DNA of 63,930 bases, counting the filler, from Nitrospirae bacterium CG2_30_53_67 (GTDB lineage Bacteria; CG2-30-53-67), in assembly GCA_001873285.1 (NCBI GenBank). It is 7 parts of 7 records of this genome, joined end to end, with 100 filler letters (N's around TTAATTAATTAA, not from the genome) between each part and the next. Parts side by side here need not be neighbours in the genome. Positions count along the whole stretch, not along the records: positions 59,476 to 63,930 come from MNYV01000019.1; 6 more parts are not named here. One strand, written 5' to 3'. The stretch's first letter is position 1; each line of letters begins with the position of its first letter. This document shows, one piece after another, positions 6,412 to 63,930 of this stretch. A model generated the notes under the pieces. It searched no databases. It was not told the origin of the DNA and worked only from the letters and a program-made list of their open reading frames with translations. The translations under genes were made by a program, and so were the position numbers.

Positions 6412-6647
6412 GGGGGAGTCTCCTTATGAAAAAATGAGTATAAAAAACAAGAGAAATCACCTATGGATTCATAACGTTCGATATTAACAGGGTAAATGAG
6501 AGACGTCAATAAAATTTTTTCAAAGTGTAAAGCCAAAATAGAAATGTNNNNNNNNNNNNNNNNNNNNNNNNNNNNNNNNNNNNNNNNNNNNTTAATTAAT
6601 TAANNNNNNNNNNNNNNNNNNNNNNNNNNNNNNNNNNNNNNNNNNNN

Positions 6648-32307: not shown

Positions 32308-32407
32308 NNNNNNNNNNNNNNNNNNNNNNNNNNNNNNNNNNNNNNNNNNNNTTAATTAATTAANNNNNNNNNNNNNNNNNNNNNNNNNNNNNNNNNNNNN
32401 NNNNNNN

Positions 32408-38895: not shown

Positions 38896-38995
38896 NNNNN
38901 NNNNNNNNNNNNNNNNNNNNNNNNNNNNNNNNNNNNNNNTTAATTAATTAANNNNNNNNNNNNNNNNNNNNNNNNNNNNNNNNNNNNNNNNNNNN

Positions 38996-46368: not shown

Positions 46369-46986
46369 GAAAAATATTTGGTGTCATATCCCTGGTGACA
46401 TTATGGTGTCTTTTTCTGTATTTTATTCCTGAAAACCGGAGAAAATACATCAAAGCAGGGGACGGTAGGCAAGAACTCGGGGGGAAAGGCCGCACCACTT
46501 CTCATCCGAGACCAGGGCATGGATGTGGGGATGGAAGCGGTCCGGATACTTCCCGAAGTGGTCCTTTCCAGGAATAGGGTGAAGCACAGAGAGGGTTGCA
46601 GGGTTGCTTCATCAAGGCGCGCGACTGAGGCGTACCCATCTGGTACACCGCAAGGAGCGGAACGCCGATGAAACCGCCCTACGGCACTCGAATGCCGCCG
46701 TATTCACGAATAGGGCCACTAAGTGTATTGTTTTCCGCAGCTTTACCCGGGGGCGGGTATTCTCACCTCGGCCGAATGCTCCTGACGGTCGTCAAGAAGT
46801 GGAATAACATGATCGGGTTGCTCAACGCCATCGACGGTCACACTCGCCACGCTGCCGTCGCCCGGTTGGAGCACGGTGATGTGGTANNNNNNNNNNNNNN
46901 NNNNNNNNNNNNNNNNNNNNNNNNNNNNNNTTAATTAATTAANNNNNNNNNNNNNNNNNNNNNNNNNNNNNNNNNNNNNNNNNNNN

Positions 46987-53173: not shown

Positions 53174-53406
53174 AGATTAGCTCTNNNNNNNNNNNNNNNN
53201 NNNNNNNNNNNNNNNNNNNNNNNNNNNNTTAATTAATTAANNNNNNNNNNNNNNNNNNNNNNNNNNNNNNNNNNNNNNNNNNNNACGCACAGGCAGGAAA
53301 GATGCTTGGCAGAAGGTTGCAGGCAATGCCGAGGGGGAGACCTCGGAAGAGAAAGCAATAAATGGGCGCTGTCCCTATTATTCCTACCTATTATTCCTAT
53401 TATTCC

Positions 53407-59372: not shown

Positions 59373-59536
59373 CGANNNNNNNNNNNNNNNNNNNNNNNNN
59401 NNNNNNNNNNNNNNNNNNNTTAATTAATTAANNNNNNNNNNNNNNNNNNNNNNNNNNNNNNNNNNNNNNNNNNNNGGGTACCCAGATCAAGTCATTGTGG
59501 TTGTTGCGCTTACTTATGATGGCAGGAGGGATCGAG

Positions 59537-59755
59537 ATGGCCGGCGAAATTAATGATATCTTAATGCGTGTGGGGGTAGCGGTCCTTGCAGGGGGACTGG
59601 TGGGACTGGAACGGAGCTACCAAGGGCGCCCTGCCGGTTTCCGCACCCACACTCTTGTGTGTATGGCTTCGAGTCTCCTGATGCTTGTAACAATTTATCA
59701 GGAACAATTTCAGGATTTCTCCAACGGGCGACTGAATATGTTAAGGGGAATTTAG
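59537..59755 (+). pseudogene. Truncated MgtC/SapB-family gene
   Basis: GGLVGLER..RPAGFRTH.LV. Similarity ends after ~58 aa. Confidence 0.8.
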
Positions 59756-59845
59756 GGACGGACCCTAACGGGGTGAGCGGTAAGTGGAGGGTGGTGAGGA
59801 CGCCGAAGGCGTGGACCTCAACGCCACTCTCGAGGAGGCCGAGGC

Positions 59846-61342
59846 GTGACGAGTGTTCGCGACAATGACTACCTTGCCGGTCTTGTGCACGAGCTGTGCA
59901 AGCTGCCGCGCGAAACCGAGTGGGTTGAGTTCAAAGTGAGCAAGGCGGAACCGCAAGAGATTGGTGAGTACCTGTCGGCCTTGGCCAATTCCGCCGCTCT
60001 GAACGGCAAGGCCTTTGCCTACTTGGTCTGGGGTGTCGAGGACGGGACGCACGCCATCGTCGGTACGAGTTTCTCGCTCTCCAAGGCGAAAAAAGGCAAT
60101 GAGCCGCTGGAGACCTGGCTGCTCCGACTGCTCACGCCGAAGATTCACTTTCGCTTCTTCGAGTTGAACCTGGAAGGCCGACCGGTCGTTCTTCTGGAGA
60201 TTGGTCGCGCCTTCCGACATCCGGTGCGCTTCCAGAGTAAAGCCTTCATTCGCGTCGGCCCGGTGAAAAAGCCGCTCAAAGACGCACCCGACCGCGAGCG
60301 GGATTTGTGGCGTATCCTCGACCGGACGCCGTTCGAGGACTTACTCGCTGTCGAACATGTCACAGCCGATGAGGTGTTGCGACTGCTGGACTATCCGGCC
60401 TACTTCGATTTGCTGGAACAGTCGCTGCCTGCCAATCGAGATGGGATACTTGAAGCCCTGAGCAACGACCACCTGATCCGCGCCTGCGAGGTCGGCGGCT
60501 TCAACATCACCAACCTGGGCGCCATCCTGTTCGCCAGGAAGCTTGGCGACTTCCCGCAGCTCAAACGCAAAGCCATGCGGGTCATACAGTATCGCGGCAG
60601 GGGTCGCACCGAGACGTTGAAGGAACAGGAAGACAGCAAAGGCTACGCCAGCGGCTTCGCTGGATTGATCGGCTACATCAACAATTTGCTGCCATCTAAT
60701 GAGGTGATTGAGCAGGCCCTGCGCAAGACGGTACCGATGTTCCCCGAGTTGGCGGTGCGCGAGTTGGAGGCGAACGCCTTAATCCACCAGGACTTCTTCG
60801 TCACCGGCGCCGGGCCGATGGTGGAGATTTTCGAGGACCGCTTGGAGATCACGAATCCAGGCGAACCGCTGGTGGACACCCAACGTTTCGTGGACACGCC
60901 GCCGAAATCTCGAAACGAGGCGCTGGCTTCGATGATGAGGCGGTTCCGTATTTGCGAGGAGCGCGGCAGCGGGATCGACAAAGTCATTTTCCAGGTGGAG
61001 CTGTTCCAGCTACCGGCGCCACTTTTCGAGAAACCGGACGGATTCACGAGGGTGGTTCTGTTCGCCCACAAGCCATTGTCTGCAATGGACAAGGCGGATC
61101 GTGTGCGGGCCTGCTATCTGCACGCATGCCTGTGCTACGTGACTCGCAAGCCCATGACCAACACGTCGGTTCGAGAGCGGTTCGGGATCACCGAGAAGAA
61201 CGCCGCGGTGGCTTCCCGCCTGCTCAATGAGGCTGTGGAGGCAGGGATGATTCTGGTGCGGGATCCCGATGCGGGGACGCGGAATCGGACATATCTGCCG
61301 TTCTGGGCCGCACCAGCCACAGCCAGGGAGGGGATTGCTTGA
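59846..61342 (+). CDS. AlbA_2/Schlafen-like domain + HATPase_c_4 protein (RecG-C-like, often found in R-M operons)
   Basis: ETEWVEFK..SALANS..LVWGVED, RELEANALIHQD, ITNPG, SRN, CEERGSGIDK, C-terminal wHTH. Confidence 0.88.
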   Translation: MTSVRDNDYLAGLVHELCKLPRETEWVEFKVSKAEPQEIGEYLSALANSAALNGKAFAYLVWGVEDGTHAIVGTSFSLSKAKKGNEPLETWLLRLLTPKIHFRFFELNLEGRPVVLLEIGRAFRHPVRFQSKAFIRVGPVKKPLKDAPDRERDLWRILDRTPFEDLLAVEHVTADEVLRLLDYPAYFDLLEQSLPANRDGILEALSNDHLIRACEVGGFNITNLGAILFARKLGDFPQLKRKAMRVIQYRGRGRTETLKEQEDSKGYASGFAGLIGYINNLLPSNEVIEQALRKTVPMFPELAVRELEANALIHQDFFVTGAGPMVEIFEDRLEITNPGEPLVDTQRFVDTPPKSRNEALASMMRRFRICEERGSGIDKVIFQVELFQLPAPLFEKPDGFTRVVLFAHKPLSAMDKADRVRACYLHACLCYVTRKPMTNTSVRERFGITEKNAAVASRLLNEAVEAGMILVRDPDAGTRNRTYLPFWAAPATAREGIA

Positions 61343-61478
61343 TGGTTCGACTTCTGTTGGCCCTTTCCCGGTACTGCGCTATGTGCAACTTATTGAAAAG
61401 ACTGGTCTTGTGGCTTCCTGCGTTGATTGATGGTTGCTTGATGACGGTAAGGGAGGGCGCTGCAGGGAGGAGGTCTCG

Positions 61479-61586
61479 ATGAAGAGTGACACCAGCGAAC
61501 GCTGCCTCGAACGCCTGATCTGTACGGCGCTGATCGGCGCGCCGTGCGTCCGGAATTCCGGGGACACAATACTTAATTCTATTTAA
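61479..61586 (+). pseudogene. Possible N-terminal stub of a type I restriction subunit R
   Basis: GGAGG RBS, then MKSDTSERCLERLICTALIGAPC, cut off at a GGGGACAC motif. Similarity is from recall only. Confidence 0.45.
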
Positions 61587-61611
61587 ATCTCAATCATAAG
61601 GAGGAAAAACC

Positions 61612-61719
61612 ATGAGCAAAGGCCAGGACAGCAAGAAGACAACCAAGAAGAAACCAGCCAAAACCAAGAAAGAAAAAAAAGCAGCAAAGAGAGCCAAGAA
61701 GGAACAAAAGAAGGGCTAA
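61612..61719 (+). CDS. Small Lys-rich protein, 35 aa (not in the ORF track)
   Basis: AAGGAGG RBS, MSKGQDSKKTTKKKPAKTKKEKKAAKRAKKEQKKG*. Confidence 0.7.
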   Translation: MSKGQDSKKTTKKKPAKTKKEKKAAKRAKKEQKKG

Positions 61720-61826
61720 GAGTCTTCCATGTAGACCCCTGAGGGCGGTTTTCTAAAGATTTCTCCCTTCGGTCGAAATGACCAAGGGAGAGAATTCCAC
61801 AGAGCTTCAGGGGAATTAGGGACAGC

Positions 61827-61996
61827 GGGGTTGTTGAAAAAGTGATTTTCTGATCTCATGCCGTCATTCCCGCGTAGGCGGGAATCCAGGTCTTTCATAG
61901 TATTACTGGATGCCCGCTCCCCGCTGAATGCATGCGGGGACAAGTTTATCGGGCATGACAAACTTATTTACCATAAGAGACTTTTTCAAGAGCCCC
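61827..61996. mobile_element. MITE-like element (170 bp) with a 5-bp target duplication
   Basis: TIRs GGGGTTGTTGAAAAAGTG / GGGGCTCTTGAAAAAGTC, ACAGC on both flanks, internal GTCATTCCCGCG..GGGAATCC palindrome. Confidence 0.7.
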
Positions 61997-62166
61997 ACAG
62001 CGACCATTTAAAAAGAATTACCCGCAACGGCAGATAAGGGGACTTTTCGAGGGTCCGGGAGAGAGGGTCCGAGGATCACATCTCCAAATATCAATTTTCT
62101 CAGTGACAAATGCAAGGGATAAAAGGGGATGGGATGCGGTTAACCCTACATTCAAGGAAAGATGCC

Positions 62167-63930
62167 ATGCAGAAACTTAAGAGTTCTGTTGAAATCTTTC
62201 GGCGCTATGGAATAGGATGGTTGTGGGTAGCTGCGTTTTTTCTTCTCTGTTTTACTTCCGTTGCGGCGGCAGGCCCGTGCCCTCCGTTCTACCTGAAGAC
62301 GGATGACGGCAAAATCATTAATCCCATGAGCGGCGATAACGCCGATCAGCCATACTCCACACGTCAGACCTGCGGCTCATGCCATCCTTACGAAAAGATC
62401 AGAGAAGGTTATCATTTCGATATGGGGTGGAAGGATGCCAGGGACAATTTTATAAAAGACAAACCTTGGTTTTTAACTCTCGGCATGACCGGCGGCTTCT
62501 GAATGGCTTCTTATCGCCAGTTGGCGAAAAAGAATTTTTCACAACCTGATGAGGTGGAATTTACTCCCTTCACGTTTGCGGCAGAGGGTCCAAAGGATTC
62601 TGAGAACCTTGGCAAACCGGGCTGTGGCGGCTGTCATCCCGGGGGTGGAATGATGGAGCTGGACCGGGATGGACTGCGTTACGACAAGCGACTGATAAAG
62701 TCCCCTGCCTTGGCGGAGTCTTTGGATGGGGACTATTACAAAAGCAAATGGGACAAAACAGGGGTGGTTGAGGTAGATTGTTTCATCTGTCATCTTCCCG
62801 GCTACGACTACAAGAATCGTGTCAAACAGCTCAAGTTCCTGAATTTCAAATGGGCAACGGTTGCGGGATCCGGTATCGGGCAGGTTATGGGGTTTGTCAA
62901 AGATGGTGTAGTACCGAGGGTGGAGTACAACAAACGGTTTTTTAATGAAGACGGCCGGGTCTCTCTGCCGATGCCCCGAAAACCGAGTTACGAAAACTGC
63001 ATGCTCTGCCATCGTTCCATAGACACTGCAAAACGCGGAACGACCTGGGCCGACCCTGAAAATCCGGATGTGCATCATCTTGCCGGGCTGACCTGTATCA
63101 ATTGTCATCCCGGCGGTCTGGACCATCAGATCGCAAAGGGAGACGAAAATGCCAACCATGTCCGAGACGATCTGGACAACACCATGAGAACCTGCGAGGA
63201 CTGCCACACCCAAGGTTACATGGGGGCAACGGTGATGAAACATCTGACGATCCGGACGGACCATCTTGAATGGATTGCCTGTCAGACGTGCCATATCCCG
63301 AATCTGCACCGCGCCAGGATCGAGAGTATGGTCGTGGTATCCGGCCCGGCAATCAAATTTACCGAGACTCTTGCTGCCGAGATCGGGGCGAGGGTTGACG
63401 CCAAGCCGGCCTATGAGCGCCTTGAGCATCGAACCAGGGAGAAGGACAGAGGCAAGATCTATCCTGTCAATCGGGCCATACCCACTTATTATACCAATCT
63501 GGACGCCGATGGCATACACTATCCGCTTTTCATTTCCGAGGTCACAAAGGCCCTCGACAGCATCAGGCACGAACTGAAAGTAAACGAGAAGTCAAAGATT
63601 ATAGAGATCTATTCTGAGAAAGATATGAAGCTGATGCTTTTATCCCTGTCAGAGACGCTGAAGGGAGACAAGCGTTTTAAACAGGTTAAGCCGTTTTATC
63701 ATAAGGGTTGGAGAGTTCATTATCTGGACGAGAACCGGAACCTGATCTCTCAAAAGGATGAAACCTGGGTCGGCGCATCTCAGTCATACAGCATCAGTCA
63801 TAACGTCGCTCCGGTAACGCAAGCGCTTGGTTATGGCGGATGCGTTGACTGCCATTCAAGCAATTCTCAAATATTCTACGGCAACGTTCTCACAGACGTT
63901 TTCGGGCAGGACGGCAGGCCGGTCTATGCC
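62167..63930 (+). CDS. Periplasmic octaheme c-type cytochrome with an in-frame UGA (candidate selenocysteine). Runs off the window end.
   Basis: Signal peptide and CGSCH before TGA 62500-62502. The same frame stays open to 63930 with CGGCH, CFICH, CMLCH, CINCH, CEDCH, CQTCH and CVDCH. Confidence 0.85.
62503..62534 (+). promoter_or_regulatory. Candidate bacterial SECIS hairpin
   Basis: UGA-AUGGC-UUCUU-A-UCGCC-AGUU-GGCGA-AA-AAGAA. The apical loop follows a 16-nt spacer after the UGA and has G at loop position 2 followed by U. Confidence 0.65.

Follow-up and report, generated by a model that had tools for sequence, protein, structure and literature searches.

Selenocysteine (Sec)-containing multiheme cytochromes have become a subject of experiment only recently, with the characterisation in 2026 of MccSep (ExtKL, GSU2937-2936) from Geobacter sulfurreducens (PMC13510729; here and below, published work is cited from the accessible part of each source). 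MccSep is a pentaheme polysulfide reductase in which U325, placed by a His/Cys heme, attacks polysulfide or selenite. A 2026 review catalogues 119 prokaryotic selenoprotein families (PMC13188914); in its accessible part, the only cytochromes are ExtKL, those of the GSU2204 family and the octaheme tetrathionate reductases (OTR) of TIGR04315, whose Sec-containing members it lists as 'GenBank annotated'. Here we describe a cytochrome gene in a 63,930-nucleotide stretch of DNA from Nitrospirae bacterium CG2_30_53_67 (GenBank assembly GCA_001873285.1), hereafter the window, in which contigs of this metagenome-assembled genome (MAG) are chained by N spacers (pairs of 44-base runs at 6548-6647, 32308-32407, 38896-38995, 46887-46986, 53185-53284 and 59376-59475); gene neighbourhoods are not readable across these joins between separate contigs. 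The gene starts at position 62167, and its in-frame UGA (62500-62502) is very probably decoded as selenocysteine 112, with a hairpin just downstream serving as a selenocysteine insertion sequence (SECIS) and a product of about 840 amino acids (aa).

From the ATG at 62167, picked for an AGGAA-like stretch 7 nt upstream that was judged by eye (a second in-frame candidate is ATG 62110), the frame is open for 588 codons to the window end, which for this gene is a contig end. The TGA at 62500-62502 (codon 112; ..LGMTGGF-TGA-MASYRQLAKK..) is its sole in-frame stop, as a sequence-only reading of this DNA had described. Codons 1-111 (62167-62499, plus strand, as for every feature of this gene) encode a predicted signal peptide, judged by eye alone, and heme motif 1 (CGSCH, 62371-62385), and the remaining octaheme domain, delimited by open reading frame (ORF) reading, a CxxCH scan and an AlphaFold2 (AF2) model, runs from 62503 to 63930, where the contig end stops it. 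Heme motifs 2-8 lie at 62623-62637, 62779-62793, 62998-63012, 63094-63108, 63193-63207, 63280-63294 and 63841-63855; by residue number the eight motifs are at 69, 153, 205, 278, 310, 343, 372 and 559, one before the UGA and seven after it, which agrees with the same reading.

The contig that holds the gene, C58 of source genome G000, has 4455 bases (window 59476-63930) and ends within the coding sequence. Over its full length C58 is matched at 99.6% identity by two independent contigs from metagenomes, L110 and L111, which carry the gene further: with the same TGA and the same 30 bases following it, they reach a genuine stop and give an 840-codon read-through ORF. The claim of one ORF extending to the window end stands, but the gene is longer than the window showed, and a cytochrome b domain follows. 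Logan contigs of four separate runs from aquifer and groundwater metagenomes (depth 8.7-58) have no variant at 62500-62502 and, with L110 and L111, support the authenticity of the TGA, for which confirmation had been sought. None of the sequencing runs listed as carrying the sequence is recorded as RNA. An artefact of sequencing or assembly, or a pseudogene with a nonsense mutation peculiar to this lineage, might be suggested by the shortness of the MAG contig and by the strain variation towards its end, but this idea is already contradicted by these two assemblies and the contigs of the four runs, by TGA at the same column in 48 other genomes and by an ORF otherwise intact over 840 codons, and we give it next to no credence. 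At 63714-63894 the window shows 16 clustered differences from L110 and L111, many of them paired, and the same is seen in the contigs of all four runs; strain variation there, beside the contig end, probably broke the assembly.

Read through at codon 112, the 840-aa product comprises a signal peptide, a periplasmic octaheme c domain, a linker membrane helix (a hydrophobic stretch between the c and b domains, identified by eye) and an FdnI-type cytochrome b anchor. The evidence for the cytochrome b domain comes from L110, L111 and the database protein P0002, outside the window: this part matches FdnI (1kqf_C) with E 2.2e-21 and all four heme-ligand His aligned, PF01292 spans residues 652-826 (44.3 bits against a cut-off of 30.1), and the domain has four helices with four conserved His to bind two b hemes. 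In an alignment of 77 read-through sequences, candidate ligands that are conserved outside the heme motifs are His 83, 303, 320, 359, 366 and 545, with Lys 121/122, 289 and 324 as further candidates, and there is no other conserved Cys or Met outside the motifs. From this architecture, the protein looks like a self-contained enzyme that couples the menaquinone pool with redox chemistry in the periplasm.

The codon at position 112 is part of a conserved column. A protein search gave 1428 matches, the best 120 of which supplied residue states; DNA of relatives was taken from the contigs of one genome per species, where at least 600 matched stretches yielded 416 confirmed ones, and the best 80 rows of these correspond to 78 loci. 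Of these 78 loci, 48 have TGA at the column, 20 a Tyr codon and 8 a Cys codon, with Thr and Ser in one each. Two loci have a second, tandem copy, both with Cys, which brings the count over 80 gene copies to 48 TGA, 10 Cys, 20 Tyr, 1 Thr and 1 Ser. Both flanks of the column are conserved (PWVLSDGMMGKF-*-PPSFRQLAKK). The TGA form occurs in at least 48 species-level genomes from several phyla; among the carriers that have been cultured are Fundidesulfovibrio agrisoli, Desulfoluna limicola, Desulfoprunum benzoelyticum, Ammonifex thiophilus and Desulfothermobacter acidiphilus. When 401 genomes were sampled evenly from the phylum of Desulfoluna, 41 of them gave 42 family matches at E <= 1e-60; 23 of the 42, including all 11 of the closest, full-length ones at E <= 1e-175, have one TGA, counted anywhere in the match.

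The protein databases tell a similar story. Among the best 120 of the 1428 matches, 64 have their first residue just past the TGA column, usually a Met or Leu within conserved RQLAKK, as would be seen where gene-calling software had treated the in-frame TGA as a terminator. In the full-length matches of this set, the column holds Ile in 20, Thr in 12, Cys in 11, Tyr in 9, Leu in 3 and Ser in 1. The alternation of UGA and Cys at one position, which had been proposed as a check, is thus found, but it is not a simple two-way exchange: Tyr occupies the column in one large clade, and Ile, Thr, Leu or Ser in other full-length homologues. These residues leave Sec unrefuted but bear on what the residue does.

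A true stop at 62500-62502, with a small monoheme signal-peptide protein ending there and a 728-aa heptaheme-cytochrome b protein initiated separately, is an extremely improbable alternative. The ATG directly after the TGA in the window speaks for it, as do gene callers that annotate the pieces apart (for example P0002, 728 aa, and others under the names 'formate dehydrogenase subunit gamma' or 'cytochrome b/b6 domain-containing protein'). However, the codon after the TGA encodes Pro, and not a start, in 44 of the 48 U-state alignment rows (47 loci and the window), and the called starts fall inside conserved sequence. The downstream piece would be without a signal peptide although its seven c-heme motifs require periplasmic maturation, the Cys and Tyr homologues are continuous single ORFs, and synonymous sites downstream of the column are frozen only where the TGA is present.

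This last constraint coincides with the hairpin, which bears on read-through as Sec most directly. In the window, the putative bacterial SECIS (bSECIS) spans 62508-62534, as judged from its fold and from comparison across loci. The minimum-energy fold of 62494-62570 contains UCGCC-AGUU-GGCGA (62514-62527), made up of CGCC (62515-62518), the loop AGUU (62519-62522), GGCG (62523-62526) and the closing pair U62514-A62527, on a lower stem UUCUU/AAGAA (62508-62512 with 62530-62534). The published bSECIS model specifies a loop of 3-9 nt, a stem of 4-16 bp, a G in the first two loop positions, a distance of 16-37 nt from the UGA and a minimum free energy of at most -7.5 (PMC13188914). With a 4-nt loop AGUU, G and then U at loop positions 2-3, an upper stem of 4-7 bp and 16 nt between UGA and loop, the hairpin agrees with all four published criteria when the model is applied by hand, so the earlier suggestion of a hairpin at bacterial-SECIS distance is borne out. 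An Rfam scan around the TGA gave no SECIS-type match, only chance matches at E 0.8-7.8.

The comparison across loci is sharper than any single fold. Like the window, each of the 48 TGA loci has CGCC-AGUU-GGCG paired at bases 16-27 after the U of the UGA; the core is exact in 47, and the remaining one has CGU and a G-U pair. Only 1 of the 30 non-TGA loci, the Cys-form locus L024, has the core paired. The 7-bp stem is fully paired in 43 of 48, with 97.3% of cells pairing over this helix across the TGA loci and the outer pairs 19/36 and 20/35 kept least, and 55-nt segments of the TGA loci fold at -7.7 to -17.0 kcal/mol. The codons underneath are correspondingly fixed, with Leu TTG, Ala GCG and Gln CAG in 48/48 TGA loci and Arg CGC in 47/48, whereas the non-TGA loci encode the same RQLA freely (TTG in 3/30, GCG in 6/30, CGC in 14/30). 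We take these comparisons of loci to have shown that recoding of UGA112 happens.

The loci with tandem copies are L023 (1302-3695 and 5955 onward), with a Cys and a Sec paralogue, and L024 (1452-3863 and about 6000 onward), with two Cys paralogues; in both, the gene between the copies encodes a Tll0287-like domain and a guanylate cyclase domain. The Cys copy of L024 retains a complete SECIS-type hairpin, which suggests a recent change from Sec to Cys.

Sec decoding by SelB and tRNA(Sec) is an established mechanism, and its components, which the sequence-only reading had asked for, are all found in the source genome: SelA (530.9 bits), SelB (296.8 bits, its N-terminal part at a contig end), SelD (158.3 bits, its C-terminal part at a contig end) and a tRNA-Sec (73.9 bits; called tRNA-SeC with anticodon tca by ARAGORN). 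The hairpin, starting 12-16 nt downstream of the UGA and presenting the 4-nt AGUU loop, would recruit SelB with Sec-tRNA(Sec), and translation would then read through the UGA to give a single polypeptide of about 840 aa. Read-through could in principle insert another residue, Trp, Cys or Gly by near-cognate decoding or through an alternative genetic code, as the host belongs to a small candidate phylum (14 genomes) and some such phyla reassign UGA. We consider this highly unlikely: TGA is a normal stop here, ending 13 of the 32 ORFs of at least 250 codons in the window, the Sec machinery is complete, the conserved hairpin agrees with the bSECIS model, and the carriers include cultured bacteria with the standard code.

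We hold Sec insertion and the domain architecture, taken jointly, with high confidence, and several observations must be set against this. The hairpin's energy is ordinary (-17.8 kcal/mol for 77 nt, z -0.88; 33 of 200 shuffles are as stable), and its significance lies in the homologue comparison, not in thermodynamics. Covariation is thin because the element hardly varies: one compensatory change, U-A to C-G, occurs in two related Thermoanaerobacteraceae genomes, Ammonifex and Desulfothermobacter, and is probably one event. The TGA genes belong mostly to one clade, and the 48 represent few independent events; the informative point is that conservation at the RNA level persists across about 45-55% protein identity. 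SelA was found in 5/5 TGA-bearing genomes tested but also in 5/5 genomes with Tyr or Cys, a test that is consistent but non-discriminating. In the source genome, SelB and SelD are both cut by contig ends, the cytochrome gene lies on a 4.5-kb contig whose link to the Sec machinery depends on the binning of C58, and no copy of the gene was found in the other 13 genomes of the phylum at E <= 1e-40.

The upstream genes speak to the binning. On L111, the genes for a zeta-toxin-like kinase and an hsdM type I methylase (L111:920-3203) align at 94.7% identity with a contig of G005, a genome of the same genus, and this synteny ends just before an SLFN/AlbA_2 gene and the cytochrome, G005 sharing only the kinase and hsdM. 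The shared upstream part and the point at which it ends indicate that the contig belongs to this lineage and that the cytochrome lies in a variable island, and this defence-island-like setting fits horizontal acquisition. In the window, the cytochrome gene follows the SLFN/AlbA_2 and HATPase_c_4 gene at 59846-61342 (plus strand).

For the evolution of the column, a rapid maximum-likelihood tree was inferred from 77 rows after masking the column itself; it has Shimodaira-Hasegawa-like approximate likelihood ratio test (SH-aLRT) support only and a midpoint root, and omits L023_U and L085_Y, both shorter than 350 residues. The column states need only 5 changes on this tree. Sec forms make up one large clade, mostly of Desulfobacterota, and further branches (Ammonifex with Desulfothermobacter, and a Delongbacteria MAG), which are not part of the clade with Tyr, Cys and Ser that unites Acidobacteriota, Gemmatimonadota, Zixibacteria and Ignavibacteria. 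The window's protein is placed in a divergent four-member group (support 99) with U, C and T at the column.

The fold of the octaheme domain is that of OTR. Pfam and NCBIfam give generic multiheme matches only, and no NCBIfam model reaches its cut-off on the read-through protein; the best, TIGR04315, scores 50.8 bits with P0001 and 45 bits with the 840-aa product. An AF2 model from a 64-sequence alignment has a predicted local distance difference test score (pLDDT) of 86.5 and a predicted template modelling score (pTM) of 0.85, and with this predicted model as query Foldseek finds one significant match in the PDB, 1SP3, the OTR of S. oneidensis, at E 1.5e-7. VIA over 48,161 chains returns 1sp3_A at Z 12.2, with a root-mean-square deviation of 4.5 over 331 of 436 residues and model residues 34-573, the next match having Z 3.9. 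PDB sequence searches with the protein and with the family profile give only NrfA-type heme-motif matches and FdnI, and 1SP3 is reached by structure only. Between alignments, hhalign pairs the family with OTR-type sequences (four TIGR04315-type sequences from genomes that also carry the new cytochrome family) at 99.1% probability and E 4.5e-19 over hemes 4-7. The preference of the sequence-only reading for a tetrathionate-reductase type over ExtKL is well supported by this profile match and by 1SP3 as the sole clear structural match. The protein thus has the eight c-heme motifs and the structural match of the OTR fold, but membership of the TIGR04315 family by score was rejected, at 45-51 bits against a cut-off of 375.

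With the OTR family (1SP3, TIGR04315), the new family shares eight CxxCH motifs, the fold, profile homology over hemes 4-7, the motifs DVH, xHxIxG and SHNVAP/THMVAP, and a position for Sec or Cys that follows heme motif 1 and precedes heme motif 2, in the catalytic-heme module (bioRxiv 10.1101/2022.02.24.481543). Unlike OTR, it has an extra alpha/beta insert at about residues 439-530, a longer spacer between hemes 1 and 2, a fused C-terminal FdnI-type cytochrome b, and Tyr as a third alternative at the Sec column. The hairpin is encoded by RQLAKK in the new family, whereas the stretch after the TGA in OTR (ISPQSNW..) differs in the sequence read. MccSep/ExtKL is likewise a periplasmic multiheme c cytochrome with one in-frame UGA, a SECIS directly downstream (PMC13510729) and public annotations that split the gene in two. 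Its own features are five hemes, an Ig-like C-terminal domain with U325 in the loop DGUP, a soluble tetrameric state and no cytochrome b (PMC13510729), as opposed to the eight motifs, the N-terminal Sec (residue 112 of 840) and the Sec context GGF-U-MAS of the new family. Identity with MccSep/ExtKL was rejected on the eight hemes against five, on the different domain set and on NF040886, which gives no match at E <= 0.1. No relation by sequence was seen either: the PDB sequence matches include no MccSep chain, although it was not established that the PDB copy searched contains MccSep.

The arrangement of domains recalls two further systems. CbcL of Geobacter sulfurreducens, compared by architecture only, also joins an N-terminal multiheme c domain to a C-terminal FdnI-like diheme b domain at the quinone pool, but its CX2CH motifs number nine and its predicted helices six, and the accessible part of the source (PMC6295460) mentions no Sec in it; no Geobacter record is among the 78 best loci. 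FdnI itself (E. coli formate dehydrogenase-N cytochrome b556, 1KQF chain C) resembles the C-terminal approximately 190 residues, with the four ligand His, but is a separate subunit, whereas the b domain of the new family is fused via an extra helix to the redox domain. Within the OTR superfamily, the family appears to be separate from the other Sec-containing multiheme cytochromes.

OTR enzymes have a Sec site of their own. In the same 401 genomes, TIGR04315 has 69 matches above cut-off, 28 of them with one in-frame TGA. Thirty loci of true OTR genes were inspected: all 15 with a TGA (L121, L123, L124, L129-L131, L137-L139 and L142-L147, in genomes of another phylum than the window's) have it at the invariant Cys column NNF[C/U], 8-9 residues after a Gly-Lys and just before heme motif 2, and Cys stands there in the remaining 15. 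An exchange of Cys and Sec beside the catalytic module is thus also a feature of true OTR enzymes. Eleven of the 15 TGA loci have an extra Cys two residues before heme motif 2 (..NWCRCTSCH).

Sec112 likewise falls within the N-terminal module, after heme motif 1 and before heme motif 2, and precedes by about 10 residues a Lys-Lys pair that is kept at K121 in 73 and at K122 in 76 of 77 sequences. The Gly-Lys of OTR falls on A-K-K 120-122 in an in-register hhalign alignment (81%, low confidence) and in three MAFFT modes; its invariant Lys is reportedly the unusual axial ligand of OTR heme 2. The placement of the Lys pair on the OTR Gly-Lys is tentative, and the whole-length hhalign alignment, confined to hemes 4-7, gives no OTR counterpart for U112. 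The same alignments (three MAFFT modes and in-register hhalign) place the OTR Cys/Sec column near residue 136-137, away from U112, and the new family has no Cys at that column. The Sec sites of the new family and of OTR are probably different columns; relative to the conserved Lys, the chalcogen residue seems to have come to lie before it in the new family and after it in OTR. The low confidence of the alignments between the N-terminal modules, where the in-register solution at 81% competes with an off-register alternative at 42%, counts against this mapping.

The N-terminal module of OTR holds its catalytic heme (bioRxiv 10.1101/2022.02.24.481543), and by analogy with MccSep U325 and the Cys/Sec site of the OTR family we propose, tentatively and with somewhat less than even confidence, that Sec112 acts at the catalytic heme as a redox-active or nucleophilic active-site residue or as an axial heme ligand, on a chalcogen substrate for which tetrathionate, polysulfide, thiosulfate and selenite are candidates. 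Electrons would pass between the menaquinone pool, the two b hemes, the eight-heme wire and the catalytic heme in the N-terminal module, and the flow may run either way, as quinol oxidation or quinone reduction. This proposal is weakened by Tyr at the column in 20 loci and by Ile, Thr or Leu in 35 of the best 120 homologues, from which it follows that neither the fold nor every function depends on a chalcogen.

A narrower account of the residue, which we rate as rather unlikely, would make Sec112 an axial c-heme ligand (His/Sec or Lys/Sec) that sets the potential or gates the site and is not a nucleophile. The three commonest states of the column in the loci, Sec, Cys and Tyr, are all known anionic heme ligands, and if Sec were an axial ligand here it would, to our knowledge, be the first natural Se-Fe heme ligation. 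The account is favoured by the presence of only six conserved non-motif His for eight c hemes and by the lack of a second conserved Cys to resolve a selenenylsulfide. However, the true OTR family likewise has six conserved non-motif His, yet its hemes are reportedly bis-His except for the Lys heme, and homologues with Ile, Thr or Leu at the column do without a ligand there. In sulfur-metabolising cytochromes, His/Cys ligation marks the catalytic hemes (PMC13510729), a further point in favour of ligation by Sec112. Returning to Sec112 as an active-site residue in the broader sense, a more far-reaching conjecture, which we regard as improbable, is that the family represents a third, independent recruitment of Sec into multiheme cytochromes, with Sec112 on or beside the iron of a lysine-ligated catalytic heme in a quinone-coupled, ten-heme, single-polypeptide enzyme, and with the lineage's choice of Sec, Cys or Tyr setting which substrate is turned over, sulfur and selenium species or others.

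The neighbours of the gene vary. Among 28 ORFs around 11 loci there is no conserved operon partner, only scattered PAS kinases and sigma-54 activators. In Ammonifex and Desulfothermobacter, a 4Fe-4S protein (Fer4_5 and dicluster) follows the gene (L080:4587-5291, L096:6654-7355) and a divergent pyridine nucleotide-disulfide oxidoreductase lies upstream (L080:322-1749, L096:2391-3752), a context that occurs only in these two related genomes among the loci compared. In Fundidesulfovibrio agrisoli, the gene adjoining the cytochrome (L046:6473-8212, minus strand) encodes 579 aa with AIRS/AIRS_C domains, the fold family that contains SelD. In one TGA-bearing relative, the pre-UGA piece is 404 aa long (L041:3011-4225) and carries a PF12974 periplasmic phosphonate-binding-type domain ahead of the heme-1 module.

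The accessible part of the selenoprotein catalogue (PMC13188914) has no entry with a cytochrome b fusion or with this architecture, and no description of the family was found in the literature searched, a search that left subscription journals and the supplements of the MccSep paper and of the review outside it. In the databases the family's products lack their N-terminal part and go by the names 'cytochrome b/b6 domain-containing protein' and 'formate dehydrogenase subunit gamma'. With entries truncated and named after the b domain, a complete periplasmic oxidoreductase linked to quinones is overlooked when the metabolism of sulfate reducers, syntrophs and groundwater bacteria is reconstructed. 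The alternation of Sec, Cys and Tyr at one column offers a natural series for the contribution of selenium at a heme active site, and the cultured carriers make the question directly testable.

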